Assembly: GCF_024502345.1 (NCBI RefSeq)
Contig: NZ_JALDNN010000001.1
Strand: one strand, 5' to 3'
DNA length: 64,000 nucleotides
DNA from: Escherichia coli
Lineage (GTDB): Bacteria; Pseudomonadota; Gammaproteobacteria; Enterobacterales; Enterobacteriaceae
This document shows, piece by piece, positions 3,766-26,418 of this stretch (positions are counted from its first letter, which is position 1; every line of letters starts with the position of its first letter). The notes under the pieces are model-generated. The model searched no databases. It had not been told where the DNA came from and saw only the letters and a program-made list of their open reading frames with translations. A program made the translations under genes and the position numbers.

Positions 3766-3810
3766 AAGGGGATGATAAGTTTATCACCACCGACTATTTG
3801 CAACAGTGCC

Positions 3811-4895: not shown

Positions 4896-4915
4896 AGCCG
4901 GTTATTCCTGATTAT

Positions 4916-6310: not shown

Positions 6311-6350
6311 GTTAAGATCAAATTTTAACCTGTAATACACTGATAAATTA

Positions 6351-6382
6351 GGGGCCCGCTTGGAAAACGGAAAATATCCTAC
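6351..6382. repeat. outer 32 nt of a Tn3-family 38-bp terminal inverted repeat (copy b), split by the second IS110-family insertion
   Basis: GGGGCCCGCTTGGAAAACGGAAAATATCCTAC, then the IS, then GTTAAG at 7746-7751 running directly into the tnpA remnant; together these reconstruct a 38-bp IR closely matching 15751-15788. Confidence 0.75.
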
Positions 6383-7745: not shown

Positions 7746-7746
7746 G

Positions 7747-8088: not shown

Positions 8089-8267
8089 GAATCCCTGAAT
8101 AACCTGACACCGGAAGAGTACCGGCTGATGGCTGAAACCCCGGAAATCTCAAAAAGTGCGCGGAACTAAATCGGGTGACATAAAAAATTTCGAATGCTAA
8201 GAGGGCCGGCAGTCACCAGTAAAACCATAATGAGTAACTGCCTGATTAAAGTTGTGGGGATGTATAA

Positions 8268-9044: not shown

Positions 9045-9114
9045 AATAGAACTCCAGTTCTGTATTAACAGAACACAGTAAGAGGATTAATTTACTTTCC
9101 AGCTGGCAGAAGTT

Positions 9115-9896: not shown

Positions 9897-9987
9897 TGAT
9901 GTAGCCCCCTGAAACACCGGACAGTAGCTGTATCTCCAGATAAGAGATAGGCTTGAATATATGTCTAACACTAACGCCAATTTTGAG

Positions 9988-10356
9988 ATGACCGGGATCC
10001 TGTTAGGGCAAGAAGTCCGTAAACGTAAAACTCCTCAGGAGAAGATCGCCATTATCCAGCAGACGATGGAGCCGGGTATGAATGTCTCCCATGTCGCCCG
10101 CCTGCATGGTATCCAGCCCAGCCTGCTGTTTAAGTGGAAGAAGCAATATCAGGAAGGCAGCCTCACCGCCGTTGCGGCTGGAGAGGAAGTCGTTCCTGCT
10201 TCTGAGCTTACTGCTGCTCTGAAGCAGGTCCGGGAGCTTCAGCGCCTTCTGGGCAAGAAAACGATGGAAGTTGAGATCCTGAAAGAAGCCGTGGAGTACG
10301 GTCAGTCGCGAAAATGGATAGCGCACGCGCCCTTGTTGCCAAAGGACGGGGAATAG
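9988..10356 (+). CDS. IS2-like orfA (InsC-like)
   Basis: [25 protein letters not shown]...[18 protein letters not shown] parallels IS2 InsC; start taken at the internal ATG 9988 rather than the ORF-track start 9961. Confidence 0.85.
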
Positions 10357-11195
10357 CCATGGTCAGCCGGACCATGGGCGTGTCGCGTGCGCAACTGTCA
10401 CTGCGGATTAACCGTTCTGCCGACTGGCAGGACAGGCGCTGTAACCGGCGTAATGAAGAAGCAGACGCAGAAATACTGTCGGCTATCCTCAACATTATCA
10501 GCGATATGCCGAGTTATGGTTATCGACGCGTGTGGGGCATCCTGCGCAAGCAACGTCGCACAGAGGGACAGCCACCTGTGAATGCCAAACGGCTTTACAG
10601 GATAATGAGCGAGCATAACCTGTTGTTGTTGCATCACAAACCAGAGCGACCGAAGCGTGAACATAAGGGCAAGATAGCGGTGGCAGAAAGCGATATGCGC
10701 TGGTGTTCAGATGGCTTCGAGTTCGGCTGCGACAACGGCGAAAAACTGCGGGTAACGTTCGCGCTGGACTGCTGCGACCGTGAGGCCATAGACTGGGCAG
10801 CAAGCACGGGAGGCTATGACAGTTCGACCGTGCAGGATGTGATGCTGAGGTCGGTGGAAAAGCGCTTCGGCGACAGGTTGCCCGACACAGCGGTGCAGTG
10901 GCTGACGGATAACGGTTCAGCGTATACCGCGTATGAAACGCGGAGGTTCGCGAGAGAGCTGAATCTGGAGCCCTGCACAACAGCGGTGAGCAGCCCGCAG
11001 AGTAATGGCATGGCCGAACGGTTCGTGAAAACGATGAAAGAAGACTATATCGCGTTCATGCCAAAACCGGATGTGAGAACAGCACTGCGAAACCTTGCAG
11101 TAGCGTTCACGCATTACAATGAAAACCACCCGCACAGCGCGCTGGGATATCACTCCCCGAGGGAATACCGGCGGCAGCGGACATCGTTAACTTAA
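10314..11195 (+). CDS. IS2-like orfB (InsD-like, integrase-core domain)
   Basis: MDSARAL...[26 protein letters not shown]...WLTDNGS...[13 protein letters not shown] parallels IS2 InsD. Confidence 0.88.
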
Positions 11196-11232
11196 GATAC
11201 AAAAGCTGTTCGGAGATGGAGGGTCAAGATCA

Positions 11233-11419
11233 ACACCGATAAGTCATATTCCGGTGTAATATGCATACCATGTGAGGTTTTTATAGTCTTTCCCTGCACG
11301 GAGCATAAAACAACGTTAAATAATGAATGGTCCGGGATAATATCTGCAAAAATTGCCAGGGGTACGGAGAGATGAAATGCACTGATATCATCGGTTATCA
11401 AAATGGCTATCTTTTTCAT
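11233..11419 (-). pseudogene. GlxA-type regulator, N-terminal 61 codons (MKKIAILITDDISAFHLSVPLAIF)
   Basis: Start codon at 11417-11419 with a GGAGAG ribosome-binding site; the frame ends inside the IS2-like element; the sequence continues in 9115-9896 after a 15-16 bp direct repeat. Confidence 0.75.
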
Positions 11420-11438
11420 TTCATACTCTCCTGTAAGA

Positions 11439-11843
11439 TTAACTAATCTGACGTACGATATCGTTATAATCAAAGTGCGCACGTTTTTCCTTAATTTTAC
11501 CGCCTTCAATAGTCAGCAGCATCATCAGAGAAATACGTACTTTTTTCCCGGTTGGTTTATATCCGTGCATTTCATTATTGTGGATACCTTCAAAAACAAC
11601 ATAAGCTACGACTTTATCCGCTTCACTGATAAGAACTTCAGGCTTCATGCTGAAGCCCCGGAATCCATCAAGTGTGGCAGTTTCAGATGCGATAAAACCG
11701 TCAACTCCATGAATGGGGTTATCTATCTGTGAATAGAAAACAAAGTCACTGGAGCAAAGTGATTTAAGGGTTAAAAAATCATAACCTTCAAGAGCCTGAT
11801 AAAAATCATGTACAAGTTTTTCATTTGAGTTTTTCATGGTCAT
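11439..11843 (-). CDS. SnoaL-like / NTF2-fold protein (134 aa)
   Basis: Small ORF 19 bp upstream of the regulator gene on the same strand; sequence pattern resembles SnoaL/ketosteroid-isomerase-like proteins (family call is tentative). Confidence 0.6.
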   Translation of the reverse strand: MTMKNSNEKLVHDFYQALEGYDFLTLKSLCSSDFVFYSQIDNPIHGVDGFIASETATLDGFRGFSMKPEVLISEADKVVAYVVFEGIHNNEMHGYKPTGKKVRISLMMLLTIEGGKIKEKRAHFDYNDIVRQIS

Positions 11844-12035
11844 TCACCTTTTTGTCTGGAGTAAGGACATTCTACGTGGTGTACACAAGTGAGTGCGAGT
11901 GACCAAAAAGACATTAATCAACATGATTGGGCCATTGTTATGAGAAAAAGGCTCCCCCCGCTGGGTTTCAACATCTGCCTGTGTTAAGCCCGCTCATAGC
12001 ACATAGCATAACGTCCAGCTGAGAACTCACGGTCA

Positions 12036-12611
12036 TTACTGTCCTGCCTTTACCCTGAGTATGGTTTGCCGGGTTGTATTAAACTCCCGAGCAATGGCGC
12101 TGATACTGGCCCCGGCCTTAATACGTGCAATCACAGAAAGTTTCTGTTCTTCATTCAGTGTTGAAGGACGGCCAAACCGCTTTCCGGCAGCTTTCGCTCT
12201 CGCAATACCAGAGTGCGTACGCTCAAGAAGCAAATCCCTTTCAAATTCTGCCACAGCAGAGATGACCTGCATGGTCATTTTTCCTGCCGGGCTTGTCAAA
12301 TCAACTCCGCCCAGCGCGAGGCAGTGAACGCGAATATCTGAAGCAGCCAGTTGTTCAACCGTTTTTCTGATATCCATCGCATTGCGCCCCAGTCGGTCGA
12401 GTTTAGTAACAATCAGCACATCACCATTTTCCATGCGATCAAGCAGCCGGATAAATCCGGGGCGTTCGCTGGCAGCAACCGAACCACTGATATGCTCCTC
12501 AATCAGTCGCTGGGGTCTGATGGCAAAACCCGCCGTTTCAATTTCACGCCGCTGATTTTCTGTAGTCTGTTCCAGAGTGGAGACCCGGCAATAAGCAAAA
12601 ACTCGTGACAT
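12036..12611 (-). CDS. tnpR: serine recombinase / resolvase TnpR (191 aa from [15 protein letters not shown])
   Basis: N-terminal catalytic serine motif (YCRVST) and C-terminal HTH; divergent from tnpA; start taken at the internal ATG 12609-12611 rather than the ORF-track start. Confidence 0.88.
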
Positions 12612-12770
12612 AGGAAACTTTCCGTACGTAAAGGATGTCCGAATTATAGCGTGTGTACGAAATAAATTTCGCTTACTTTCGGACATACTGTCAGCTTAGT
12701 GTACGAAACCGACCGGTTTCGGTCACAGCGAACAAATAACAGATGAAAACTATACGCGAGGGAGGCATTT

Positions 12771-15755
12771 ATGCCACGGCGACAGATACTGAGCAGCGAA
12801 GAGCAGGAACGCTTACTGGTTATACCAGATGATGAAATTATTCTGACCCGAATGTGTTTTCTGAACGAACCGGATATTGCGCTCATTAATAAGCACCGAA
12901 GGCCAGCGAATCGCCTGGGCTTTGCTGTATTACTCTGTTATCTGCGTGGACCTGGATTTATTCCGGACAAAAGCAGTGCTCCTCACAATGGCGTTGTATC
13001 CAGGGTTGCTTCCCGACTGAAACTTCAGCCTGATTTATGGCCGGAATATGCATCCAGAGAGCAAACCCGCTGGGAACATCTGACCGAACTTTATCGCTAC
13101 CTGGAACTATCCCCGTTCAGCCGGTCAATGCAAAAAGACTGTATCCGTCATCTGCACCCCTATGCCATGCGAACTGACAAAGGATTTATGCTGGCGGAAG
13201 AAATGCTCAGCTGGCTACATAACAATAATGTTATTTTCCCTTCTGTTGAAGTGATCGAACGGACGCTTGCCGAAGTCGTCACGCTCGCTAACAGATCGGT
13301 ATTTTCGACACTTACCGCGCAACTGGAAAAGCAGCATAAATCAGCACTCGACAGCCTGCTCATATCAGAGGGTGAACAACCTTCCCGTCTGGCATGGCTG
13401 CTACAGCCTCCGGGTAAAATAAACGGTAAAAATGTGCTGCAACATATCGACCGGCTTAATTCCATCGCTGCGCTGGGGTTGCCTGATGGTATTGCACTTT
13501 CCGTTCACCAGAACAGGTTGCTTAAACTGGCGCGTGAGGGCCGGAAAATGAGCAGCAGGGACCTGGCAAAATTCACCGATGTCAGACGTTACGCTACGCT
13601 GGTTTGTATAATAACAGAGGCCAGGGCCACCCTGACTGACGAAGTGATTGATCTGCACGAGCGTATCCTGGGTAGTCTGTTCAGCAGGGCAAAACGCACG
13701 CAGGCCGAACGGCTCCAGCAAACGGGAAAGCTTATTCAGAGCAAGCTGAAGCAGTACGTTACCGTCGGGCAGGCGTTACTTAACGCCAGAGAATCCGGGG
13801 AAGATCCCTGGACTGCAATAGAAGATGTCCTTCCCTGGCAGGAATTCATCAACAGCGTGGAAGAAACGCGGTTTCTTTCCCGTAAGGGCAATTTCGACGC
13901 GCTTCATCTGATCACCGAAAAATACAGTACGTTGCGTAAATATGCCCCGCGTATGCTGTCAGCATTGCAGTTCATGGCGACACCTGCGGCGCAGGCGCTC
14001 AGCGATGCGCTGGACACCATAACGGAAATGTACCGTAAACAACTTCGTAAAGTGCCGCCATCAGCGCCAACAGGGTTTATCCCTGAAAGCTGGCGAAAAC
14101 TGGTGCTCACGCCTTCAGGCATCGACCGCAAGTACTACGAGTTTTGCGTACTGAATGAACTCAAGGGTGCATTACGTTCCGGTGATATCTGGGTAAAAGG
14201 ATCGCGCCGCTACAAAAATTTTGATGATTATCTCATCCCGACTGCTGAGTTTGAGAAATCCCGACATAATGACCAGTTACAGTTGGCCGTTCAGACCGAT
14301 AGCCAGGCATACCTTCAGGCCCGTATGACTCTTCTTGCATCTCGGCTGGAAGAAGTTAACGCGATGGCGCTTGCCGGTGATTTGCCCGATGTAGATATCT
14401 CAGATAAAGGCGTAAAAATCACTCCACTGGAGAACAGCGTTCCTTCAGGTGTTTCGCCCTTTGCAGATTTGGTCTATGGCATGCTTCCCCATCCGAAAAT
14501 TACGGAGATACTGGAAGAAGTTGATAGCTGGACGGGATTTACGCGTCACTTCGCGCACCTCAAAAATAATAACGTCAGACCAAAAGACGGAAGACTGTTG
14601 CTGACCACCATTCTGGCTGACGGCATCAACCTTGGGCTGACAAAAATGGCGGAATCCTGCCCTGGGGCCACAAGATCGTCACTCGAAGGTATTCAGACAT
14701 GGTACATCAGGGATGAAACTTATTCAGCGGCACTGGCCGAGCTGGTCAACGCACAGAAAGAGCGGCCTCTGGCCGCATTCTGGGGCGACGGGACAACATC
14801 GTCGTCAGACGGGCAGAACTTTCGGGTAGGCAGTCACGGACGTTATGCCGGTCAGGTCAATCTTAAATATGGTCAGGAGCCGGGCGTGCAGATTTATACG
14901 CATATCTCAGACCAATACAGCCCGTTCTACGCCAAAGTGATCAGCCGGGTGCGCGACTCAACCCACGTGCTTGATGGCCTGCTGTACCATGAAAGCGATC
15001 TGGAAATTACCGAGCATTACACCGATACCGCAGGCTTCACTGAACATGTTTTCGCCCTGATGCACCTGCTGGGATTCGCTTTTGCGCCAAGGATCCGTGA
15101 TCTTCATGACAAGCGGCTGTTTATTCATGGAAAGGCCGAGCGCTATCCGGGGCTTCAGTCTGTCATATCAACAACCTGCCTGAATATCAAAGACATTGAG
15201 TCGCACTGGGATGAGGTATTGCGCCTGGCAACCTCGATTAAGCAGGGGACAGTCACCGCATCACTGATGATGAAAAAGTTAGCCAGTTACCCAAAACAGA
15301 ATGGACTTGCCAAAGCGCTGAGAGAGATTGGCCGCATCGAACGGACACTATTTATGCTGGACTGGTTCCGTGATCCCGGTCTGCGCCGACGCGTGCAGGC
15401 GGGGCTGAATAAGGGTGAGGCCCGTAATGCCCTTGCGCGAGCGGTCTTTTTGCACCGTCTGGGTGAAATAAGGGATCGTGGGCTGGAGAATCAGAGTTAT
15501 CGCGCCAGCGGGCTGACATTACTGACAGCAGCGATCACGTTGTGGAACACGGTATATATAGAAAGAGCTATTGAGTCACTAAAACGAAAGGGTATCCCGA
15601 TAAATGAGCAACTGGTCTCTCATCTTTCTCCCCTGGGCTGGGAACATATCAATCTGAGTGGAGATTACGTCTGGCGTAATAATCTTAAGCTGGGATCCGG
15701 AAAATACCGCTCATTACGTACAGTCGATACCGCTTTGTACAAAAAACAGTCTTAG
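12771..15755 (+). CDS. tnpA: Tn3-family transposase TnpA (994 aa)
   Basis: Size and sequence pattern typical of Tn3-family TnpA (about 1000 aa); the stop codon lies inside the terminal IR. Confidence 0.93.
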   Translation: MPRRQILSSEEQERLLVIPDDEIILTRMCFLNEPDIALINKHRRPANRLGFAVLLCYLRGPGFIPDKSSAPHNGVVSRVASRLKLQPDLWPEYASREQTRWEHLTELYRYLELSPFSRSMQKDCIRHLHPYAMRTDKGFMLAEEMLSWLHNNNVIFPSVEVIERTLAEVVTLANRSVFSTLTAQLEKQHKSALDSLLISEGEQPSRLAWLLQPPGKINGKNVLQHIDRLNSIAALGLPDGIALSVHQNRLLKLAREGRKMSSRDLAKFTDVRRYATLVCIITEARATLTDEVIDLHERILGSLFSRAKRTQAERLQQTGKLIQSKLKQYVTVGQALLNARESGEDPWTAIEDVLPWQEFINSVEETRFLSRKGNFDALHLITEKYSTLRKYAPRMLSALQFMATPAAQALSDALDTITEMYRKQLRKVPPSAPTGFIPESWRKLVLTPSGIDRKYYEFCVLNELKGALRSGDIWVKGSRRYKNFDDYLIPTAEFEKSRHNDQLQLAVQTDSQAYLQARMTLLASRLEEVNAMALAGDLPDVDISDKGVKITPLENSVPSGVSPFADLVYGMLPHPKITEILEEVDSWTGFTRHFAHLKNNNVRPKDGRLLLTTILADGINLGLTKMAESCPGATRSSLEGIQTWYIRDETYSAALAELVNAQKERPLAAFWGDGTTSSSDGQNFRVGSHGRYAGQVNLKYGQEPGVQIYTHISDQYSPFYAKVISRVRDSTHVLDGLLYHESDLEITEHYTDTAGFTEHVFALMHLLGFAFAPRIRDLHDKRLFIHGKAERYPGLQSVISTTCLNIKDIESHWDEVLRLATSIKQGTVTASLMMKKLASYPKQNGLAKALREIGRIERTLFMLDWFRDPGLRRRVQAGLNKGEARNALARAVFLHRLGEIRDRGLENQSYRASGLTLLTAAITLWNTVYIERAIESLKRKGIPINEQLVSHLSPLGWEHINLSGDYVWRNNLKLGSGKYRSLRTVDTALYKKQS

Positions 15756-15858: not shown

Positions 15859-16092
15859 TTGGCCCTCAAACCCCTCAACACCCTGATGGAACGTTTTTTT
15901 AGAAGTCTGAAAACAGAATGGGTGCCGGATAATGGATACGCTAATTTTAGCGAAGCCAGCACAGCGATAACGAATTACATAACGGGATATTACAGCCAGC
16001 TCAGACCTCATCAATATAACGGTAGTTTGACGCGGAATGAATCAGAACGATTGCTCTGGAAAAACTCTAAAGCCGTGGCCAACTATTGTTGA
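15859..16092 (+). pseudogene. IS3-family orfB C-terminal fragment
   Basis: MERFFRSLKTEWVP...YYSQLRPHQYNGSLTRNESERLLW is the typical C-terminus of an IS3-family OrfB; only about 75-90 codons remain (frame open from about 15817), directly to the right of the Tn3-family IR. Confidence 0.7.
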
Positions 16093-16103
16093 CCACTACA
16101 CAT

Positions 16104-16571
16104 CTATTTTATAGGTAACCCCTTAAAAGATTTAATCTCCTTGATACTGAAACTGGTATTCATCTCCTTTATATTCCCAATTTTTCGTATCCTTATCATT
16201 GATACGTTGTGAAAATCATCCATATCTTTTACTACAAGATGCAGAAGATAGTCGTATCTTCCGGAGATATTATGACAGGCAATTACATTATCAATCTTCA
16301 TTATTTCTGCCTCAAAATATTGCATGCACTCCTCGGAATGAAGATCTAATGTAATATTCATGAATGCATAAAAATTGTATCCAAGGCTTTTCGGTTCGAT
16401 AAAAGCCCGATAGTTTTTTATCACTTCCTGCTCTAAAAACTTTAGCCGTTTCCAGCAGGCTGGAGGGGAAAGAAAAACACGCTTGGCAATCTCAGCGTTG
16501 TTCAGCCTGCCATCTTCCTGCAAGAAATTTAAAATCTGCATATCAACTTTGTCAAGCTTTACCATGTTCAA
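16104..16571 (-). CDS. Lrp/AsnC-family transcriptional regulator (155 aa)
   Basis: N-terminal HTH (DKVDMQILNFLQEDGRLNNAEIAKRV) and C-terminal RAM-like region; divergently arranged to the transporter gene across an AT-rich 200-bp spacer. Confidence 0.85.
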   Translation of the reverse strand: MNMVKLDKVDMQILNFLQEDGRLNNAEIAKRVFLSPPACWKRLKFLEQEVIKNYRAFIEPKSLGYNFYAFMNITLDLHSEECMQYFEAEIMKIDNVIACHNISGRYDYLLHLVVKDMDDFHNVSMIRIRKIGNIKEMNTSFSIKEIKSFKGLPIK

Positions 16572-16773
16572 CCTCCTGTGATAGCAATCATATTCGTAAT
16601 TTTATGAAATAAAATTAACCAAATCAATAAAAACAAGAAATAAGATAAGCCATAAATTGTAAAAATAGTTAATTTTAAAAAGATAATTAATATACTTACC
16701 GGGTAGAATCATTTATGAAGTGCAAACCTCTGTAAATAATTACCATAAAATATCCTCACACAGGAATATACCT

Positions 16774-18081
16774 ATGACCATATTGGAACAGAACATCGAC
16801 AGGGCCTCATTATCGCCAGAAGAGTGGAAAAAACTAACCCGATTTGACAGTACAGATGTAGGATGGATTATCATAAGCATAGGTATGGCTATCGGCGCCG
16901 GGATTGTGTTTTTACCGGTCCAGGTGGGGCTTATTGGATTGTGGGTATTCCTGCTTTCTTCCATCATTGGTTATCCGGCCATGTACCTGTTTCAAAGATT
17001 GTTTATCAATACGCTGGCAGATTCACGAGAGTGTAAAGACTATCCCGGTGTCATCGAGGGCTATCTGGGAAAAAACTGGGGAATGCTCCTCGGTCTGCTC
17101 TACTTTCTCATGCTGGTCATCTGGATATTCGCCTACCCTACGGCGTTGACTAACGATACAGCGTCGTATTTACACACGTTTGGCTTAACTGAGGGTCTTT
17201 TATCAGAGAACCCTTTCTATGGCCTAATTCTTATTACATTTCTTGTGCTTATTGCTTCACGTAGTGAAGAGCTCTTGTTCAGGATTTCCTCTTTCATGGT
17301 GTTATCAAAACTGGTGGTAGTGCTTATCCTGGGGTTGATGATGGTCAGCATGTGGGACCTCTCCAAAAACATCGGTTCATTCCCTTCTTTTAGTATTTTA
17401 ATCAAAAACGCCATTATCACCTTGCCATTTACGTTGACATCAATCCTGTTTATTCAGTCTTTGAGTCCGATGGTAATTTCATATCGTGCAAAAAACAAAT
17501 CTATAGAAGTGGCAAGATATAAAGCGCTAAGAGCAATGAATATCGCTTTTGGTACACTATTCATCGTTGTTTTCTTTTATGCATTATCATTCACTTTCGC
17601 CCTCGGTCACGATGAAGCTGTCAAAGCCTACGAGCAAAATATTTCAGCACTGGCTATTGCCGCACAGTTTATTGAAGGAGATGCAGCAAAGTATGTGACG
17701 CCAGTTGGTGTTGCATTGAATATCTTTGCCCTGATGACTGCCTTCTTCGGCGTTTACCTCGGGTTCAAAGAGGCTGTACAGGGACTGGCGATGAACGCAT
17801 TGACCCGTTTTATACCTTCAGAGAAAATCAATAAAAAAACGCTTAATGTTGGTATTGTCATTTTCACTATTGCCATCGCCTGGGGGGCAATCGTTCTGAA
17901 CCTGCCGGTTCTGCTATTCACCTCAATCTGCAGCCCCATTTTCGGCATTGTTGGTTGCTTAATCCCTGCTTATCTGGTTTACAAGGTACCCTCCCTTCAC
18001 CGATATAAAGGGTTTTCTCTGTATCTGATCATCTTTACTGGCATCCTGCTCTGTATTTCTCCGTTCCTGAAATTCATTTAA
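16774..18081 (+). CDS. HAAAP-family amino acid transporter (TdcC/SdaC/TyrP-like), about 435 aa
   Basis: Multi-span membrane protein with N-terminal W...IGAG..FLP motif; start taken at ATG 16774 (AGGA ribosome-binding site upstream) rather than the GTG at 16720. Confidence 0.82.
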   Translation: MTILEQNIDRASLSPEEWKKLTRFDSTDVGWIIISIGMAIGAGIVFLPVQVGLIGLWVFLLSSIIGYPAMYLFQRLFINTLADSRECKDYPGVIEGYLGKNWGMLLGLLYFLMLVIWIFAYPTALTNDTASYLHTFGLTEGLLSENPFYGLILITFLVLIASRSEELLFRISSFMVLSKLVVVLILGLMMVSMWDLSKNIGSFPSFSILIKNAIITLPFTLTSILFIQSLSPMVISYRAKNKSIEVARYKALRAMNIAFGTLFIVVFFYALSFTFALGHDEAVKAYEQNISALAIAAQFIEGDAAKYVTPVGVALNIFALMTAFFGVYLGFKEAVQGLAMNALTRFIPSEKINKKTLNVGIVIFTIAIAWGAIVLNLPVLLFTSICSPIFGIVGCLIPAYLVYKVPSLHRYKGFSLYLIIFTGILLCISPFLKFI

Positions 18082-18112
18082 ACAAACATATATGTCCAAA
18101 GAAGGTTAAATT

Positions 18113-19318
18113 ATGAAGTACAATTTTGATGAAATTATCAACAGAAAAAATACTGATGCCCTGAACTACGATGGGTGGAGACAATATATATTCAAGGCCG
18201 ACAAGAGTGCCCGCTTTGACTTTAAGGACGATGAATTTGTCAGAATGTGGGTCGCTGATATGGATTTTGCGACACCTCCGGAAATCCTTGCAGCGATTCA
18301 GGAGAGGCTTGATAAAAAAATACTCGGTTACACAAAAGTTTACGATGATGAGTACTATCATATTTTCCACAACTGGTGCCAGAGACGCTATGACTGGAAT
18401 ATAGATACCACAGAGATCGTGCTTTCACCGGGCATTATTCCTGCACTTAACCGTCTGGTACCGTTACTGACACAACAGGATGAAAGTGTGTTGATCAATA
18501 CACCATCCTATACGCCGTTTAAGCAGGCTGGAGACTATAGCTATCGTCGAGTGATCTGTTCTGATTTGCTGAAACAGGACAATGAATACATTATTGACTT
18601 CAACGATATGGAGAAAAAACTAACCGATCCTTCTCTAAATATTAAGCTGTTCATTTTATCCAATCCGCAAAATCCAACCGGGATGGTCTGGTCAGAACAA
18701 GAATTAATGAGAATGGGGCAGTTGTGCCTTAAAAACAATGTCTGGATCATTTCAGACGAAATACATTGTGATTTACTGAGAAATGGGATCAATCATATCC
18801 CGATGGCAAAACTGTTCCCAGACACTGATAAGATCATCACCTGTATGGCACCAAGCAAAACCTTTAATCTTGCCGGAAATCTGATGTCCCATATTTTTAT
18901 TAAAAATGAAAAGGTCAGAAAAGAATGGTTACGTCTTTATGATGAGTTTCTTTCACCACTGAGTCTGGCTGCGACCAAAGCGGCCTGGTCCCGGTGCGAC
19001 GAGTGGCTGGAACAATTAAAACACTATCTTGATGATAACTTCAGACTGGTAGAAAAATTTACCCAGGAACACTTTCCTGACGCAAACTTTAAAATTCCCG
19101 ATGCAACTTATCTGGCATGGATAAATATTGAGAAATACCTGCCACCGCAGGTAGACAGACAACAGCTTTCTCTCTATTTCGCCAACCAGACGGGAATACT
19201 GCTTGAAGGCGGGAACATGTTTGTAAGCAATGGAGAGGGTTACATACGGATTAATCTTGCCTGTCCACGCGCCGTGATACAAGAAGGATTAGAGAGAATA
19301 AGAAAAGCACTGAAATAG
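18113..19318 (+). CDS. PLP-dependent C-S lyase, MalY/PatB family (401 aa)
   Basis: Shares motif pattern with MalY as recalled (DMDFATPP, SNPQNPTG, ISDEIH, SKTFNLAG with the putative PLP lysine); a GAAGG ribosome-binding site precedes the ATG. Confidence 0.82.
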   Translation: MKYNFDEIINRKNTDALNYDGWRQYIFKADKSARFDFKDDEFVRMWVADMDFATPPEILAAIQERLDKKILGYTKVYDDEYYHIFHNWCQRRYDWNIDTTEIVLSPGIIPALNRLVPLLTQQDESVLINTPSYTPFKQAGDYSYRRVICSDLLKQDNEYIIDFNDMEKKLTDPSLNIKLFILSNPQNPTGMVWSEQELMRMGQLCLKNNVWIISDEIHCDLLRNGINHIPMAKLFPDTDKIITCMAPSKTFNLAGNLMSHIFIKNEKVRKEWLRLYDEFLSPLSLAATKAAWSRCDEWLEQLKHYLDDNFRLVEKFTQEHFPDANFKIPDATYLAWINIEKYLPPQVDRQQLSLYFANQTGILLEGGNMFVSNGEGYIRINLACPRAVIQEGLERIRKALK

Positions 19319-19380: not shown

Positions 19381-19507
19381 ATACCGGATAATTTAGCATG
19401 TTGAACCGATTTTCGGAGACTCTCTATCGCGCTGGACGGCTCTGCATGTACATTGTCGCCTGAAAAATAATATCAGGGATATAAATAGCCTGTTAATACC
19501 TCGTTTC

Positions 19508-20565
19508 GGCTTTGTTGAATAAATCAGATTTCGGGTAAGTCTCCCCCGTAGCGGGTTGTGTTTTCAGGCAATACGCACGCTTTCAGGCATACCTGCTTTC
19601 GTCATTTTGTTCAGCGCTCGTACCAGGGCCATAGCCTCTGCAACCTGACCATCGTAGTCACGCAGTGTCAGTGAACCCCCGAACAGCTGTTTTACCCGGT
19701 ACATCGCCGTTTCCGCTATCGAGCGACGGTTGTAATCTGTTGTCCATTTCCACCGCGCATTACTCCCGGTCATTCGCTGATTAGCCACTGCACGGTTACG
19801 GTCTGCATATTCACCGGGCCAGTAACCCGCACCTTTTCGGGGAGGGATAAGCGCGCTGATTTTCTTACGCCGCAGTTCATCGTGACATAGCCGGGTATCG
19901 TAAGCGCCATCGGCGGCGGCTGACCTGATTTTCCGGTGGGTTTGCCGGATTAACCCGGGGAAGGCCTCTGAGTCCGTAACGTTGTTCAGCGACAGGTCAG
20001 CGCAGATGATTTCATGTGTTTTACTGTCAACGGCGAGATGCAGCTTACGCCAGATACGGCGGCGTTCCTGGCCATGCTTTTTGACTTTCCACTCGCCTTC
20101 ACCGAAGACCTTCAGCCCGGTGGAATCAATTACCAGGTGTGCGATTTCACCCCGGGTGGGCGTTTTGAAACTGACATTAACCGACTTTGCCCGCCTGCTG
20201 ACACAGCTGTAATCCGGGCAGCGTAGCGGAACGTTCATCAGAGAAAAAATGGAATCAATAAAGCCCTGCGCAGCGCGCAGGGTCAGCCTGAATACGCGTT
20301 TAATGACCAAGCACAGTCGTGATGGCAAGGTCAGAATAGCGCTGAGGTCTGCCTCGTGAAGAAGGTGTTGCTGACTCATACCAGGCCTGAATAGCTTCAT
20401 CATCCAGCCAGAAAGTTATGGAGCCACGGTTGATGAGGGCTTTATTGTAGGTGGGCCAGTTGGTGATTTTGAACTTTTGCTTTGCCACGGAACGGTCTGC
20501 GTTGTCGGGAAGATACGTGATCTGATCCTTCAACTCAGCAAAAGTTCGATTTATTCAACAAAGCC
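19508..20565 (-). mobile_element. IS903-like element, copy 1 (1058 bp), flanked by a 9-bp target duplication
   Basis: IRs GGCTTTGTTGAATAAATC at 19508- and inverted ending 20565; direct repeats CCTCGTTTC at 19499-19507 and 20566-20574. Confidence 0.93.
19564..20533 (-). pseudogene. IS903 transposase, frameshifted
   Basis: Split into two ORFs (20300-20533 and 19564-20403); relative to copy 2 there is a 1-nt insertion near 20309-20310 (accaagcac versus accagcac). Confidence 0.9.
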
Positions 20566-20598
20566 CCTCGTTTCCTCTCTTCATGACACCCTGACTCA

Positions 20599-21135
20599 TT
20601 AATATAGTGTCACAGCATTGTGAGGGCACTGGACAACGCATTCGCCACAACCATCACAGCGTTCGTTGTCAGCCGACATCCGTCCAGACTCATTAATAAA
20701 GCAAGCCTGTCGTGGGCATACATCCACGCACTGTTTACACTGTCTGACAGGATTCACACAGGCAGAGTTACAGAACACCGGGCGCAGTCCGGTATCAAAA
20801 CGAGACTGCACGCGTAGCGCGTCACTCGAACATGCTGCGATACACAAACCACAGCCATCACAACTGGCATATTCAATCATCAGTTGCGGGTAACCGTCTT
20901 CATGTCTGGACAGGACTCCCATTGGGCAGACATCAATGCACTGACTACATTGGGTACACTGGGTTATGAACTCCGCATCAGGAACCGCCCCTGGCGGCAA
21001 CGAATGTCCCAGCCGGGTAGACAGTACTTCTGGCGTTGTGTGCTTTGCCGCGCTGACAAACGCACGAAACAGTCCGCGCCGACTGACGTGCCGGTGAGCC
21101 ATCAATTCATGATAATATTTCTCTGATTTGTTCAT
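20599..21135 (-). CDS. NapF-like ferredoxin-type protein (polyferredoxin, 178 aa)
   Basis: Four Cys-cluster motifs (CxxCxxCxxxCP-like) and an N-terminal RRGLF motif; start overlaps the stop of the DmsD-like gene by 4 nt. Confidence 0.72.
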   Translation of the reverse strand: MNKSEKYYHELMAHRHVSRRGLFRAFVSAAKHTTPEVLSTRLGHSLPPGAVPDAEFITQCTQCSQCIDVCPMGVLSRHEDGYPQLMIEYASCDGCGLCIAACSSDALRVQSRFDTGLRPVFCNSACVNPVRQCKQCVDVCPRQACFINESGRMSADNERCDGCGECVVQCPHNAVTLY

Positions 21136-21728
21136 CCGAAATACAGCCGCTTCACCGCAGGTTGCAACGCCCGTTGCTGTTGCAAATCCTGCAAATAGCG
21201 CGTGGTCACGGCGGCAAGGCGAGCATAGAACGGACTCACCCTGTTGCCCTGCAGACGTTCAAGATAGCGATATCCCCACGGTAACAAATAAACCTCTAAC
21301 AGCTGATTAACTGCCGCATCTTTTCCAGCATCAAGTATCGCACTGCAGGCTAACAACATCAGCCCAAACTGATCTTCCGGCTCATTTTGACCCGAATTAA
21401 AAGTCATTCCCTGAGACTGCAGAAACGCCCGGTACTTAGCGGTGGTATTGCCCATTAGCAGGTTATCGCGTTCCAGCCAGACAGATCCCCAGGGTGGCAC
21501 GGGCATCTCGCCCTGCCCTTCAAACAGCACGGAGAATTGCCATGCCAGTTCGTCATTATCGGGAAACGGCCAGTCTGCGCACAGTGAAGCTGTTCCCGCA
21601 GGGTCGCTCCATGGGTACAGCTCCGACAGAGTGGGCAGACAATCGAAAAGTGCTTTCACCTCTGGTCGTTCCGGAGAGTAGTAAAACAGTGCACCGAGGA
21701 TCCTCGGTAATACAATATTGGGGGACAT
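21132..21728 (-). CDS. TorD/DmsD-family redox-enzyme maturation chaperone (198 aa)
   Basis: Motifs ILGALFYY.PE, PWGSVWL and NEPEDQFG parallel E. coli DmsD as recalled, at roughly 35-40 percent identity. Confidence 0.8.
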   Translation of the reverse strand: MSPNIVLPRILGALFYYSPERPEVKALFDCLPTLSELYPWSDPAGTASLCADWPFPDNDELAWQFSVLFEGQGEMPVPPWGSVWLERDNLLMGNTTAKYRAFLQSQGMTFNSGQNEPEDQFGLMLLACSAILDAGKDAAVNQLLEVYLLPWGYRYLERLQGNRVSPFYARLAAVTTRYLQDLQQQRALQPAVKRLYFG

Positions 21729-21771
21729 CCTGAGTTCTCCTGAAAACAGAGCGGCTACAGCCGCTCACAGA

Positions 21772-22557
21772 TTACATCGGCAACGTCCACAGGTTGTAGA
21801 ATGCGATCCTACCCACCAGTTCCGCAGCGATAACCACCAGTGACGTGGTCGCCAGAACGGCCACATTAGTTTTGAGTCGTACCCAGGCCACCACACCGAC
21901 AATGCCGACAGCTAGCAGTACAACCTGAGCAGTGAACCAACTGGATTGAGCCGCAGTTAGCACCCCATCAGCATCCATAAGCGTCAAAATATAGCCTGGA
22001 CGCAGGCAGAAGCTGACCAGAATCGCCAGCACACTCACCAGCAACCCCAGGCGCAGACCAAACAGTCCGGCCAGAATGCCACCTCCGATCATCGGAGTCA
22101 GTACCATCATCACCGTAGTGTAAGATGTCCGCCAGGTGACCACCGTCGGCAACTGATAGATTTGCGGGATGGCGAAGATAAAAACCACCCCCACCGCGGC
22201 CGCCAGCCACACCAGTCCTTTACATAACGAAGCCGCTCCACGATTGAGAAGCAACCCCAGTGCGCCCAGCCCGCCAAGTGTCGCAAACACTGCCGATAAC
22301 ACGATTTCGTTGCTCATCGGTGAATGGCCCACTCGCAGCAACATATTCAATGCTCGTAAAGGCTGGCCTACATGGAAAATGCCCAGCAACACCCCAACGC
22401 CAAACAGACACATCGCGGAGAAAAGACCAACGGCCATACGCTGCCTGTCAATCTGCCCCAGGGTGCCGCCAATCAGCAACAGAATAAACGCGCCAACTGC
22501 GCTCTGAGTAAAGACGGTAAAAAAGACCAGAGGTAACTCATGCATTGCGCACCTCAC
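21772..22557 (-). CDS. DmsC-like membrane anchor subunit
   Basis: Hydrophobic multi-span protein (HELPLVFFTVFTQSAVGAF) resembling DmsC/YnfH; follows the Fe-S subunit gene with overlap. Confidence 0.8.
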   Translation of the reverse strand: MRCAMHELPLVFFTVFTQSAVGAFILLLIGGTLGQIDRQRMAVGLFSAMCLFGVGVLLGIFHVGQPLRALNMLLRVGHSPMSNEIVLSAVFATLGGLGALGLLLNRGAASLCKGLVWLAAAVGVVFIFAIPQIYQLPTVVTWRTSYTTVMMVLTPMIGGGILAGLFGLRLGLLVSVLAILVSFCLRPGYILTLMDADGVLTAAQSSWFTAQVVLLAVGIVGVVAWVRLKTNVAVLATTSLVVIAAELVGRIAFYNLWTLPM

Positions 22558-23164
22558 TCATGTTCATGATGGCCCCTTCCTTGTCTCCCGTCGGGCGGGC
22601 CTTCGGATGGGGTTTAATAATAAGGTTAGGATGAGTAAACGACGCGGCGGGCAGCGGCGCGATTTCATTCTCAGTGCCATACTTCTTCCGTAACTCATCG
22701 ATCGGCCCGAAATCCAGCGCGCGCTGTGGACAAGAGTCCACGCAAATTGGTCGCAGATTTTTCTCCAGTCGATCAAGGCAACCATCGCACTTACGCATCA
22801 CTTTGGCCTGAGCATCAAATTGTGGCGCGCCATACGGGCAGCGCATTTCGCAATAACGGCATCCGACACAAATATTGTCATCGACCAGCACCAGTCCGTC
22901 CTCTTCACGTTTGTGCATCGCTCCGGTAGGACATCCGGAGACACAAACCGGTTCATCACAGTGGTTACAGGCAATAGAGAGGTAGTAGGTAAAAGTGTCG
23001 TTGTGCCAGCTTTCTCCTTCTTTCGCCCAACTTCCGCCACCATATTCATATACCCGACGGAATTTCGGGCCCACGTCCAGATCTTTATTATCCTTGCAAC
23101 TGACCTGGCAGGTTTTGCAGCCTGAGCAACGCGAGGAGTCAACATAAAAGCCATACTGTTTCAT
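22538..23164 (-). CDS. DmsB-like Fe-S subunit (four-cluster ferredoxin, 208 aa)
   Basis: MKQYGFYVDSSRCSGCKTCQVSCKD...CNHCDEP.C...CVGCRYCEMRCPYGAPQ parallels E. coli DmsB/YnfG. Confidence 0.88.
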   Translation of the reverse strand: MKQYGFYVDSSRCSGCKTCQVSCKDNKDLDVGPKFRRVYEYGGGSWAKEGESWHNDTFTYYLSIACNHCDEPVCVSGCPTGAMHKREEDGLVLVDDNICVGCRYCEMRCPYGAPQFDAQAKVMRKCDGCLDRLEKNLRPICVDSCPQRALDFGPIDELRKKYGTENEIAPLPAASFTHPNLIIKPHPKARPTGDKEGAIMNMSEVRNA

Positions 23165-23177
23165 TGCGGATCACTCC

Positions 23178-25361
23178 CTAAGCGCGTTTGATTTCAACCA
23201 GGTTGGTATGTTGCGGGTTCCCTTTCGCCAGCGGCGACGGCAGGTGGCTGGTCAATGTGTTAATACATCCACCCACGTCCACACCGTTGCTGTCCAGTCG
23301 GGTCCACGCGCCTTGCGGCATTGCCACCACGCCCGGCAGGATGCGCTGTGTCACCTTGCAGGGGATCTCCACCACACCGCGATCGTTGAATACATGGACC
23401 ATATCGCCTGATTTCAACTGACGCACGCTGGCGTCTATCGGGTTGATCCAGACTTCATCCGGTACCGCTTCATGCAGCATCAGCACACTGGCATATGTTG
23501 AGTGCGTGTGACCTTTGGTGTGAAAACCGCTCATCTGTAGCGGATACTTTGCTGTCAGACTCTTGTTCAGATGGGACTCTGTCACTATACAAAATTCAGG
23601 AACAGCCGGAATGCGATCTCCTTCCGGTAGTGTCCAGGCTTTAGCCAGTTCCGCCAGAGTGTGCGAGTAAATCTCAATCTTCCCGGAAGGTGTCGTCAGT
23701 GGACTGGCAACCGGATCATGGCGGAAATCAGCAAGGATAATACTGTCCTCATCACGAGTACCTTGCTGATCGATAACCCCCATATTCATTGCAACTTCCC
23801 ATTCAGGCAGATATGATCGCTTCTCTTTAACTTGTCCGTAATGCTTCGCCATCCACTCTGCCTGAGTACGCCCCTCAGTAAAACGCTCTCTTACCCCAAG
23901 ATGCCCCGCAATATCTGCACAGATATCATAGGTACTGCGTACTTCCCACATCGGTGTGATCGTTTTTTGCATTGCAATCATGTAATGGTGAGAACCGGCT
24001 GCATAGGAACTGTCCACCAGATCCTCGGCTTCTAAGTAGCTAGTTTCTGGAAGAAGGATATCGGCAAAGCGGGCACTGGCAGTCATATGATTATCAATAA
24101 CCACGATAGTTTCGCACAGGCTGTCATCTTCAAGTATTTTGCGTGTACGATTGATATTTCCATGTTGATTCAGAAGTGCATTCCCGGCCTGGTTGAAGAA
24201 CAGTTTAATACCGGTTTTCAGTTTATCCGCGCCTTTAACCCCCATAGTGGTGGCTGTCATTTTTTCCGGACTTTGAATCGCATCTGTCCACAGATAGCAG
24301 GGGATTGACACCTTAACGGGATTTTCACCAATCGGCAGAGCAGGAACACCATAAGGTGTTCCGTATGTCCAGTTCCCATTGTTGGTTCCTGGCAATCCAA
24401 AATGACCCGTCAGGGCAGGAAGTATCTGAACCGCTCTGGAAGTCTGTTCACCATTTGCATGACGCTGTGGCCCCCATCCCTGGGCAATGAAACAGGCCCG
24501 AGCTTCGGCCATTTCACGTGCCAACTGGCGAATACGAATAGCCGGGATGCCACAGATATCTGCCGCCCATTCAGGTGTTTTTTCGACGCCGTCATCACCG
24601 TTACCCAGAACATAGTCTTTATAACTGGCATTTGGTTTCGCCGTTTCCGGAAGGGTGCTACGATCATAACCGACACAATAAGTATTGACTCGTTCTTCGT
24701 CGATCAGATTTTCTTTTATCAACGTGTGTGCAATAGCTGCTACCAGTGCAGCATCGGTTGTAGGGCGAATTGGTAACCATTCAGCATGTTCTGTAACAAC
24801 AGAGTCTGTATAGCGCGGATCGATGATAATCACCCGGGCGCCTGATATTTCCAGCGCACGGCGCAGTTCTTCAACTTGCCCACCACCGGACATCCGAGTC
24901 TCAGATAAATTCAGACCAAAAAAAACCACAAGATCAGAATGCGCAATCTGGCTAAAATGACTGGCAAACTGTACTCCTGTAGCACCATACGTGTAAGATG
25001 TGGCGGTAAAGTTTTGAGCGTTTGAGTAATTATTGTAATACTGCAGAAAACCGCCATTCAGGTTCAATAACCTTTTCCATGCGGGTGTTCCTTGGTTATG
25101 ATAATACGCGCCAGATTGATAATTAAAATAGATTGCTTCATTTCCATATTTTTCAGAAACGCGCTTTAATTCAGCGGCAATAAAGGCTGTGGCCTCATCC
25201 CATGAAATACGTTTAAATTTCCCTTCTCCGCGTTTACCAACACGTTTCATCGGATATTTAATCCGGTCAGGGCTGTAAACTCGCCAGCGGCTGGAACGAC
25301 CTCGCAGACAGGGACGGATTTGGTGTTCACCGAATACCGAATCATCCTTAGCATCTTCCGG
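23178..25361 (-). pseudogene. DmsA-like molybdopterin oxidoreductase catalytic subunit, 5'-truncated by IS903 copy 2
   Basis: Frame stays open to the IS903 boundary (PEDAKDDSVFGEHQIRPCLRGRSSRWRVYSPDRIKYPMKRVG) and matches DmsA from about residue 85; the Tat signal and N-terminal Cys-cluster region are missing. Confidence 0.88.
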
Positions 25362-26418
25362 GGCTTTGTTGAATAAATCGAACTTTTGCTGAGTTGAAGG
25401 ATCAGATCACGTATCTTCCCGACAACGCAGACCGTTCCGTGGCAAAGCAAAAGTTCAAAATCACCAACTGGCCCACCTACAATAAAGCCCTCATCAACCG
25501 TGGCTCCATAACTTTCTGGCTGGATGATGAAGCTATTCAGGCCTGGTATGAGTCAGCAACACCTTCTTCACGAGGCAGACCTCAGCGCTATTCTGACCTT
25601 GCCATCACGACTGTGCTGGTCATTAAACGCGTATTCAGGCTGACCCTGCGCGCTGCGCAGGGCTTTATTGATTCCATTTTTTCTCTGATGAACGTTCCGC
25701 TACGCTGCCCGGATTACAGCTGTGTCAGCAGGCGGGCAAAGTCGGTTAATGTCAGTTTCAAAACGCCCACCCGGGGTGAAATCGCACACCTGGTAATTGA
25801 TTCCACCGGGCTGAAGGTCTTCGGTGAAGGCGAGTGGAAAGTCAAAAAGCATGGCCAGGAACGCCGCCGTATCTGGCGTAAGCTGCATCTCGCCGTTGAC
25901 AGTAAAACACATGAAATCATCTGCGCTGACCTGTCGCTGAACAACGTTACGGACTCAGAGGCCTTCCCCGGGTTAATCCGGCAAACCCACCGGAAAATCA
26001 GGTCAGCCGCCGCCGATGGCGCTTACGATACCCGGCTATGTCACGATGAACTGCGGCGTAAGAAAATCAGCGCGCTTATCCCTCCCCGAAAAGGTGCGGG
26101 TTACTGGCCCGGTGAATATGCAGACCGTAACCGTGCAGTGGCTAATCAGCGAATGACCGGGAGTAATGCGCGGTGGAAATGGACAACAGATTACAACCGT
26201 CGCTCGATAGCGGAAACGGCGATGTACCGGGTAAAACAGCTGTTCGGGGGTTCACTGACACTGCGTGACTACGATGGTCAGGTTGCAGAGGCTATGGCCC
26301 TGGTACGAGCGCTGAACAAAATGACGAAAGCAGGTATGCCTGAAAGCGTGCGTATTGCCTGAAAACACAACCCGCTACGGGGGAGACTTACCCGAAATCT
26401 GATTTATTCAACAAAGCC
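25362..26418 (+). mobile_element. IS903-like element, copy 2 (1057 bp), without target duplication
   Basis: IRs GGCTTTGTTGAATAAATCG at 25362- and inverted ending 26418; flanks ATCTTCCGG and CCGGTTGAA are not a direct repeat. Confidence 0.93.
25394..26362 (+). CDS. IS903 transposase (intact; likely 307 aa from the GTG at 25439)
   Basis: Matches IS903/IS102-type transposase as recalled (KQKFKITNWPTYNKALINRGS...MPESVRIA); the ORF track extends it upstream to a TTG. Confidence 0.92.
   Translation: MKDQITYLPDNADRSVAKQKFKITNWPTYNKALINRGSITFWLDDEAIQAWYESATPSSRGRPQRYSDLAITTVLVIKRVFRLTLRAAQGFIDSIFSLMNVPLRCPDYSCVSRRAKSVNVSFKTPTRGEIAHLVIDSTGLKVFGEGEWKVKKHGQERRRIWRKLHLAVDSKTHEIICADLSLNNVTDSEAFPGLIRQTHRKIRSAAADGAYDTRLCHDELRRKKISALIPPRKGAGYWPGEYADRNRAVANQRMTGSNARWKWTTDYNRRSIAETAMYRVKQLFGGSLTLRDYDGQVAEAMALVRALNKMTKAGMPESVRIA

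Follow-up and report, generated by a model that had tools for sequence, protein, structure and literature searches.

Three genes at positions 16104-19318 of a 64,000-nucleotide stretch of Escherichia coli DNA (contig NZ_JALDNN010000001.1; the whole stretch is hereafter the window) make up, with a probability that we put at roughly 0.6, a horizontally acquired, self-contained uptake-and-cleavage operon for cysteine-type amino acids. This triad consists of an Lrp/AsnC-family regulator, an amino acid importer that is a paralogue of CyuP, and a pyridoxal 5'-phosphate (PLP)-dependent cysteine-S-conjugate beta-lyase of the PatB/MalY type. The general mechanism that we predict from these sequences, import by the CyuP paralogue followed by PLP-dependent beta-elimination, is well supported by family membership, by gene anatomy, and by co-conservation. 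The odds are about even that the substrate is an S-substituted L-cysteine, namely, an S-alk(en)yl-cysteine, its sulfoxide, or an S-alk(en)ylmercapto-cysteine, compounds that would come from Allium and Brassica plants or from the reaction of a thiosulfinate with cysteine. Free L-cysteine is the main alternative, and a distinctly less probable one.

The bacterial breakdown of cysteine and its derivatives governs gut H2S and volatile thiols and influences both tolerance to antibiotics and oxidants and bacterial survival under exposure to plant thiosulfinates. As the protein families suggest, the regulator would bind the AT-rich spacer and, in response to an amino acid effector, activate the transporter-lyase operon and control its own promoter. 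The permease would import the substrate, and the lyase would catalyze an alpha,beta-elimination yielding pyruvate, ammonium, and a sulfur leaving group that depends on the substrate. Cysteine would give H2S, an S-alkyl-cysteine a thiol, a mixed disulfide a persulfide, and a sulfoxide a sulfenic acid and hence a thiosulfinate. The module reproduces the layout of cyuR-cyuPA, in mobile form, with a different Lrp/AsnC member and with an unrelated, probably oxygen-tolerant PLP enzyme in place of the oxygen-sensitive CyuA.

A preliminary description of the window had reported a regulator divergent to a HAAAP-family transporter with a PLP-dependent C-S lyase 31 bp beyond it, and the open reading frames (ORFs) lie exactly where that description placed them, with 31 bp between the transporter stop codon and the lyase start codon (Table 1). 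The three genes total 3.2 kb, and all of the ORFs are intact. The full regulator ORF covers 16104-16571 on the minus strand; the ATG at 16565, which gives a protein of 153 amino acids (aa), is probably its real start, because an AGGAGG sits 7 nt upstream and the RefSeq annotation uses the same codon. The full transporter ORF covers 16720-18081 on the plus strand, and we take the ATG at 16774 as its start because the resulting 435-aa protein then matches all homologues; the spacer of 16572-16773 proposed earlier agrees with this choice. The block had also been called AT-rich and bounded by an IS3-family fragment and a first copy of IS903 (IS, insertion sequence), and both flanks are present as described. 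The GC content is 40.2% in the module and 25.5% in the spacer, compared with 49.2% in the window, 50.6% in its Tn3 genes, and 51.2% in the neighboring dms-like operon.

Table 1. Coordinates of the three-gene module and its immediate neighbors in the window
Feature	Position	Strand	Remarks
IS3-family transposase fragment (integrase core, N-terminus missing)	15859..16092	+	RefSeq: partial integrase-core protein; left boundary of the module
Lrp/AsnC-family (feast/famine type) regulator	16104..16565	-	153 aa; divergent from the transporter-lyase operon
Divergent control region	16566..16773	.	208 bp; 25.5% GC
HAAAP/STP-family amino acid importer, CyuP (YhaO) paralogue	16774..18081	+	435 aa
PLP-dependent PatB/MalY-type cysteine-S-conjugate beta-lyase, long-N-terminal-loop subgroup (FnaPatB1, ShPatB, AltI)	18113..19318	+	401 aa
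IS903 copy 1	19508..20565	-	inserted between the lyase and the napF-like gene; transposase frameshifted
Convergent napF-like / dmsD / dmsC-like / dmsB / dmsA-like operon	20599..25361	-	assigned by NCBIfam
IS903 copy 2	25362-26418	inverted relative to copy 1	with copy 1, brackets the dms-like remnant

The lyase scores 360.5 bits against TIGR04350 (PatB family C-S lyase), above the curated cutoff of 340, whereas aminotransferase models give it at most 104 bits against cutoffs above 370 (the best equivalog, 104 against 624); it does not group with the true aminotransferases. Its 16 best solved relatives are nearly all C-S lyases, some of them putative, and include FnaPatB1, ShPatB, BsPatB, cystalysin, and MalY. 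The closest of those compared is FnaPatB1 of Fusobacterium nucleatum subsp. animalis (PDB 7QUG; 505 bits, 54% identity), ahead of ShPatB of Staphylococcus hominis (PDB 6QP1; 419 bits, 48% identity); identity to Bacillus subtilis PatB is 38%, and the MalY PDB match reaches 188 bits. We mapped the pocket through a HMMER alignment (PDB number = paper number + 6) and a MAFFT alignment. All 23 homologues aligned have the PLP lysine K249, in an SKTFN motif, and R379, the counterparts of K246 and R376 in ShPatB. Y25 aligns with Tyr25 of ShPatB and the corresponding Tyr of FnaPatB1; BsPatB lacks the extended N-terminal segment. The lyase retains the ShPatB pocket residues Y25, V47, Y73, P135, K249, E365, and R379 and differs from ShPatB in having I109 for V108, F279 for T276, and D277 for F274. 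The triad clade and the clade of AltI, a lyase of the allicin-tolerance (alt) clusters, share W22, Y25, V47, Y73, I109, P135, K249, D277, F279, E365, and R379; in the FnaPatB1 clade, residue 22 is F, residue 135 is Y or F, and residue 277 is Y. FnaPatB1 shows high activity toward cysteine conjugates that bear hydrophobic substituents (PMC11203769), and ShPatB, the body-odor enzyme that releases a thioalcohol, has an apolar pocket around Tyr25 (PMC7385124).

The transporter is 75% identical over 425 aa to CyuP of E. coli K-12 and only 26% and 25% identical to SdaC and TdcC. Against TIGR00814 it scores 437 bits over profile positions 1-397, under the cutoff of 525.8, as does CyuP itself at 504. 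In a neighbor-joining tree, the triad transporters (those of the window, of Proteus, and of the loci L102 and P0223) form a clade with 100/100 bootstrap support that is sister to canonical CyuP; the Providencia transporter branches deeper. Proteus also holds a separate, canonical YhaO of 443 aa. On this phylogeny we assign the transporter to the CyuP subfamily but to a distinct paralogue clade, rather than to the CyuP orthologues. A search of the PDB for solved structures of its relatives found none. Zhou and Imlay showed that CyuP imports cysteine specifically, with uptake half-maximal near 20 uM (PMC9040844); cyuP is co-transcribed with the gene for CyuA, an oxygen-sensitive 4Fe-4S desulfidase, and cyuPA is activated by the Lrp/AsnC-type CyuR together with Crp (PMC9040844).

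The regulator aligns over its full length with the Lrp and AsnC profiles and with Lrp/AsnC structures, of which 2p5v and 2gqq are its best PDB relatives, and its homologues bear PF13404, PF13412, and PF01037 (the HTH_AsnC plus RAM/AsnC_trans_reg architecture). The NCBIfam scores, 108 bits for Lrp (cutoff 233) and 66 bits for AsnC (cutoff 227), mark it by sequence as a member of the Lrp/AsnC family that is an orthologue of neither. It is 81-82% identical to the Proteus and Providencia copies and 30% identical to E. coli CyuR/DecR. The CyuR operator has been published as GAAwAAATTGTxGxxATTTsyCC (PMC11408624), and the 64-kb window holds no match to it with up to 3 mismatches allowed. We considered the regulator as a CyuR orthologue and rejected it on its 30% identity and the absence of the operator motif from the window.

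The spacer contains a perfect 9+9 palindrome, TAATTTTAT-GAA-ATAAAATTA, at 16597-16617, and a comparable palindrome occurs at the same offset in the L102 variant and also 5' of the Providencia regulator. A promoter scan places a candidate regulator promoter (-35 at 16627-16622, -10 at 16604-16599) over the palindrome and yields no good sigma-70 match within the spacer in the operon direction, which fits dependence of the operon on an activator. A CRP-like site, TGTGA-N6-TCATA (TGTGATAGCAATCATA, 16577-16592), adjoins the regulator start; TGTGA-N6-TCA(T/A)A, a pattern chosen post hoc, occurs once in the 64-kb window and is retained in the Klebsiella, Proteus, and L102 versions. We infer the functional roles of the palindrome, the CRP-like site, and the promoter from their sequences.

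Relatives of the regulator in other hosts were also inspected. Those of Pseudomonas (58-61% identity) have an APC permease in their context, which is uninformative. On a Serratia plymuthica conjugative element (L106/L107 2397-9110), an AsnC regulator of 59% identity is transcribed away from a PALP-family gene of the cysteine synthase/desulfhydrase type, into which IS66 has inserted. The locus continues with TetR, DsbA, and SDR genes, and an OYE-family gene stands at the end of L107. Here too, a regulator of this type would be paired with alt-like genes and with a PLP enzyme for beta-replacement or beta-elimination, though the locus is suggestive only.

Horizontal acquisition, as surmised in the preliminary description from the AT-richness of the block and its IS flanks, is supported. 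Identical (100%) DNA is found in one of 5,426 complete E. coli genomes (NZ_LR536431.1), and 94%-identical DNA in eight of 72,556 plasmids, all from Klebsiella. Copies with at least 90% lyase identity occur in Citrobacter, Klebsiella, Salmonella, E. coli, and Pectobacterium, where they sit on plasmids or on chromosomal islands next to a P4-type integrase. In Proteus terrae the three genes keep the order seen in the window and lie within core chromosome, flanked by accC on one side and yhdT-panF-prmA-dusB-fis on the other and free of mobile genes in the vicinity; the nucleotide homology of this locus to the window, 72%, covers 16102-19311, that is, exactly the three genes. The lyase clade at 76-77% identity is present in several Proteus species. 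We set Proteus aside as the donor: the Proteus triad (L004 7947-11203) has a GC content of 33.9%, more AT-rich than its flanks at 41.5%, and Proteus was probably a recipient too. In Providencia and Morganella the triad is reordered, with the lyase before the transporter and the regulator convergent; the Providencia proteins are 82% (regulator), 68% (lyase), and 50% (transporter, a more distant member of the CyuP subfamily) identical to those of the window. A gut-metagenome lineage (L102/L103) has the regulator opposite a transporter-lyase-RidA operon, and a Bacteroidota conjugative element has AsnC opposite RidA-lyase, without the transporter. The three genes are thus co-conserved elsewhere, from Proteus, Providencia, and Morganella to the gut-metagenome lineage and the Pectobacterium/Citrobacter/Klebsiella group, and the triad is a unit within the Enterobacterales. 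Our literature search found no paper describing it and gave no sign that it is a well-characterized operon of unrelated function.

Beyond that clade, we scanned the lyase alignment against ~100,000 species genomes, in which the matches listed were 48-58% identical and came from other phyla. None of the 80 distant long-loop PatB loci listed, a set that leaves out the FnaPatB1 and ShPatB loci themselves, has a related transporter, a related regulator, alt genes, or a DmsA-like gene within ~7 kb; the triad linkage is specific to one clade and not general. RidA is encoded in the fetched flanks of seven of these 80 loci and adjoins the lyase in several. Linkage to RidA, of the 2-aminoacrylate deaminase family, is expected because the lyase would release 2-aminoacrylate; it is what a high-flux beta-eliminase would need and lends indirect support to beta-elimination.

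Two further associations were seen beside related modules. The Klebsiella plasmids (L002/L003 10800-11501) carry an Asp/Glu-racemase-family gene ~500 bp beyond the regulator, absent from the window, which hints at a D-amino acid or a racemization tied to the module in that plasmid lineage. The Morganella island with the reordered triad (L112/L113 1-2444) has, besides the triad, a further enzyme-transporter pair of like design, in which a methionine gamma-lyase-like Cys/Met PLP enzyme is followed by a 420-aa HAAAP-family transporter; an AraC regulator and a homoserine-dehydrogenase-like gene (annotated in L113 only) accompany it.

The usual companions of the triad, an alt-like cluster and a dms-type operon, had both gone unrecognized in the preliminary description. 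As the alt reference we used the validated cluster on the onion-virulence plasmid of Pantoea ananatis PNA 97-1R, compared gene by gene; the cohort comprises OYE/AltA, SDR/AltB, DsbA/AltC, Trx/AltD, CMD/AltE, and OsmC/AltJ, with or without Gor, under the TetR repressor AltR, which senses thiosulfinate (PMC13178969). This cohort lies near the triad at L001, L003, L007, L097-L100, and L102. Within 10 kb of the triad, E. coli LR536431, the Citrobacter-type islands, Providencia, and L102 each have an alt-like cluster; the association is weaker in the Bacteroidota conjugative element. In E. coli LR536431, homologues of AltR, AltE, AltD, the DMT protein, AltC, GorA, and AltJ (54-77% identity) lie 6-12 kb away; the Citrobacter-type islands have homologues of AltJ, AltR, AltE, AltD, and AltA (69-88%, with an alkene reductase 80.9% identical to AltA of PNA 97-1R), and Providencia has homologues of AltR, AltE, AltB, AltA, and AltC (44-77%). 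At L102, homologues of AltC, the DMT protein, AltE, and AltR (56-76%) stand directly beside the triad with no IS between. These differing identities indicate separate alt-like clusters rather than a single inherited junction.

Aligned over its full length with B9Q16_RS23030, the putative alt-cluster C-S lyase, the lyase is 55% identical (401 aa, 455 bits), and 11 of the 12 mapped pocket positions agree; in a tblastn search of the window with all 11 Alt proteins, the lyase was the sole match. We cite the alt lyase by locus tag because the altH/altI wording of the study that named it a putative C-S lyase (10.1101/2020.02.12.945675) conflicts with altI in the Burkholderia TTG preprint (10.1101/2024.01.24.577064). 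At AltI-clade loci the lyase comes after an EamA/DMT gene, and Pseudomonas allicin-resistance regions conserve a "cystathionine beta-lyase" and a DMT permease (PMC7119367). The altH-altI pair alone failed to complement a delta-alt mutant (10.1101/2020.02.12.945675). PatB enzymes can serve as efficient alliinases that turn S-alk(en)yl-cysteine sulfoxides into thiosulfinates (PMC13197776), an activity that supplies a chemical reason for finding PatB enzymes near thiosulfinate-tolerance genes. The wiring of the triad lyase to a cysteine-type importer and an amino acid sensor points to an imported cysteine derivative as the substrate, and the triad thereby offers the allicin-tolerance field a handle on the role of its conserved C-S lyase.

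One alt-like cluster, OsmC-TetR-CMD-Trx-OYE-DsbA (L097 17827-21129), is very common on clinical plasmids. Its OYE, 81% identical to AltA of P. ananatis, recurs at 99% identity or higher in 485 plasmid records, mainly from Klebsiella, Enterobacter, and E. coli; Klebsiella likewise predominates among the alt-like matches of an mSphere study (PMC12306174).

An S-substituted substrate is favored because the transporter paralogue coexists with a canonical CyuP in Proteus, because the lyase has a Tyr25-loop pocket, because that pocket matches AltI, and because sequence-distinct alt-like clusters recur nearby. Several observations weigh against the operon interpretation or its favored substrate. IS elements separate the triad from the alt-like genes in most islands, and the co-localization could reflect hitch-hiking on crowded mobile elements; no alt genes are found in the fetched flanks of the Proteus, Pectobacterium, and Morganella triads, nor elsewhere in the window. 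D277, where ShPatB has Phe and FnaPatB1 has Tyr, weakens the argument for a hydrophobic conjugate. The candidate operator palindrome is only weakly above chance for such AT-rich DNA, with 39 of 2000 spacer shuffles reaching an equal arm length. Finally, CyuP is reported to be cysteine specific, and cysteine import would be the simplest reading of 75% identity to it. CyuP specificity and parsimony favor plain cysteine, and PatB/MalY/cystalysin-type enzymes commonly desulfhydrate it. The triad would then serve simply to catabolize or detoxify L-cysteine, as an oxygen-tolerant counterpart of cyuPA whose lyase acts as a desulfhydrase (releasing H2S, pyruvate, and ammonium) and whose alt links are incidental. 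Its layout matches that of cyuR/cyuPA, and a PLP substitute for the oxygen-sensitive CyuA (PMC9040844) would extend the pathway to oxic conditions. We nevertheless rate this explanation as somewhat unlikely: the canonical YhaO/CyuP and the paralogue of Proteus fall in separate clades with 100% bootstrap support, which suggests different roles; the lyase belongs to a Tyr25-loop subgroup characterized on S-alkyl conjugates; distinct alt-like clusters recur near the triad; and there is no CyuR box in the window for a regulator so distant from CyuR.

It is improbable that the lyase is a cystathionine, cystine, or lanthionine beta-lyase for methionine or sulfur salvage (a back-up for MetC in the manner of B. 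subtilis PatB or E. coli MalY) or a MalY-like moonlighting regulator. BsPatB and MalY do show cystathionine beta-lyase activity (PMC7385124), and Asp277 might interact with the amino group at the far end of cystathionine, cystine, or lanthionine; however, the lyase is only 38% identical to BsPatB and matches MalY more weakly (188 bits), ShPatB-type pockets discriminate against cystathionine (PMC7385124), and CyuP-type carriers import a small monoamino acid (PMC9040844). Biosynthetic back-ups for MetC, moreover, normally come without a dedicated importer and an amino acid-responsive activator. Rather less improbable, though still unlikely, is that the module is silent passenger DNA in this host, intact through recency rather than selection. 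It sits among IS5, IS1, IS3, IS110, IS2, Tn3, and IS903 elements, its neighbors are broken (a truncated dmsA-like gene and an FtrA-like gene interrupted by IS2), and its complete identity to another E. coli copy, in a species where only one of 5,426 complete genomes has it, points to recent acquisition. Yet neither the ORFs nor the control region is damaged, copies elsewhere match them exactly, IS903 lies outside the operon, and the passenger explanation bears on present use by the host, not on the identity of the module. In the window, the triad is intact; of its usual neighbors, the dms-like operon is broken and the alt-like cluster is missing.

Taking an imported S-substituted cysteine as the substrate, one may go further and regard the triad as the importing part of a mobile set of genes for both using and tolerating the organosulfur compounds of Allium and Brassica, an extension that we advance as speculative and rather doubtful. 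The CyuP paralogue would import S-alk(en)yl-L-cysteines, their sulfoxides, or S-alk(en)ylmercapto-cysteine; the AltI-type lyase would convert these to pyruvate, ammonium, and a reactive sulfur product; and the alt-like thiol-redox genes would handle that product. Where the triad is joined to a dms-like operon in an eight-gene block, the DmsABC-type reductase would reduce sulfoxide or thiosulfinate outside the cell. If this were true, the so-far unexplained C-S lyase of the thiosulfinate-tolerance clusters would acquire a substrate class, and clinical Klebsiella, Citrobacter, Enterobacter, and E. coli would bear, on their islands and plasmids, a diet-linked sulfur-metabolism trait. The link between alt-like clusters and the triad in any case touches mobile elements common in clinical Enterobacterales.

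The convergent dms-like operon, of the DmsABC S-/N-oxide reductase type with a dmsC-like anchor, DmsD, and an additional NapF-like ferredoxin, was classified with NCBIfam models for NapF (97 bits), DmsD (146 bits), DmsB (TIGR02951, 281 bits), and the DmsA/YnfE family (TIGR02166, 984 bits); its catalytic subunit belongs to the DmsA/YnfE family and falls below both the DmsA and the YnfE/F cutoffs. An intact version occupies L001 23733-28750. In the window, the dmsA match to TIGR02166 begins at profile position 109, and ~258 nt of the 5' end have been lost to IS903 copy 2, which leaves the operon inactive here. It accompanies the lyase wherever flanks were read in the clade with at least 90% lyase identity, ending early, after dmsD, on the Klebsiella plasmids, and the triad and the operon together form the eight-gene block in Pectobacterium, Citrobacter, Klebsiella, and E. 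coli. One common junction joins them in all of the copies (L001, L002, and L094-L101); in the window, IS903 copy 1 lies between them. The operon is absent beside the Proteus, Providencia, Morganella, and L102 triads. We set it aside as a functional partner: there is a single junction, the GC content is 51% as opposed to 40%, the operon is absent elsewhere, and the evidence is non-independent. A functional link between the triad and the operon is unproven.

IS903 copy 1 is a simple insertion: it is flanked by a 9-bp target duplication, CCTCGTTTC (19499-19507 and 20566-20574), and NZ_LR536431.1, whose sequence overlaps 9 bp across the insertion point, is without it. It lies 189 bp past the lyase stop codon. 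A 1-bp indel splits its transposase into ORFs at 19564-20403 and 20300-20533, and it is 99.9% identical to the inverted copy 2, with a single 1-bp gap. Copy 2 connects the truncated dmsA to a truncated yddB-like gene, a junction that suggests an IS-mediated deletion at the island edge. To its right, NCBIfam matches identify a pitrilysin-like peptidase and then GadB and GadC; these, together with the sizes of the downstream ORFs, fit what we take to be the K-12 core run yddB'-pqqL-gadB-gadC-yddW-dosCP-ddp. The triad is the cargo of an IS-dense island in the E. coli chromosome, since the flanking matches and ORF sizes resemble that run.

The island starts to the left of the window, and its left part as read here (window 1-11200) is nearly all IS: an IS5-family element at 143-1123, two genes of the IS110 family at 5205-6269 and 6640-7662, IS2 at 10314-11195, and fragments of IS1 and IS3. 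Positions 8268-15755 hold an MBL-fold hydrolase, an FtrA/GlxA-type regulator cut by IS2, and an ester-cyclase-like gene beside Tn3-family tnpR/tnpA. Providencia has a divergent MBL and GlxA pair (L006/L007 6225-8074; 55% and 51% identity) a few kb from its triad, and the L102 variant is flanked by a Tn3 transposase at 74% identity; the MBL/GlxA/Tn3 set may be another recurrent companion or a shared transposon vehicle.

Among known systems, CyuR-CyuPA of E. coli, Salmonella, and Yersinia ruckeri (DecR/YbaO, YhaO, YhaM) follows the same activator-importer-enzyme logic, and the importers of the two systems are truly homologous. The preliminary description compared the triad with E. coli cysteine detoxification by analogy only; the parallel is stronger than that for the transporter, a 75%-identical CyuP paralogue, and fails for the regulator, with its 30% identity to CyuR and no CyuR box. 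Both enzymes would yield pyruvate, ammonium, and a sulfur product, but the 4Fe-4S desulfidase CyuA has no significant similarity (E = 8.4) to the fold-type I PLP lyase of the triad. CyuR is encoded at a separate locus, whereas the triad regulator is encoded beside its operon; and cyuR-cyuPA is core, whereas the triad is mobile and rare.

The alt clusters pair a 55%-identical lyase with an EamA/DMT exporter-type protein under AltR repression, whereas the triad pairs its lyase with an importer and an amino acid-type regulator; the triad is repeatedly near homologues of AltR, AltE, AltD, AltC, AltA, AltB, AltJ, and Gor. With FnaPatB1 and ShPatB (PDB 7QUG; 6QP1/6QP2), which cleave S-alkyl-L-cysteine conjugates to thiols, the triad lyase has in common the elongated Tyr25 loop, the PLP lysine, and the carboxylate-binding arginine; it has W22, P135, D277, and F279 where the FnaPatB1 clade has F22 and Y277 and ShPatB has F277 and T279. 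The sdaCB and tdcABCDEFG operons resemble the triad in joining an STP-family permease to a co-transcribed enzyme that makes a 2-oxo acid from a hydroxy or thiol amino acid, and the tdc operon includes the RidA-type TdcF, as some triad variants include RidA; their transporters are 25-26% identical to that of the triad, and their enzymes and regulators belong to other families. The triad is therefore best described as a mobile CyuP-type operon in which an AltI/FnaPatB1-type lyase has taken the place of the enzyme by non-orthologous displacement. Its component families and its logic are familiar; its link to thiosulfinate-tolerance clusters is new.

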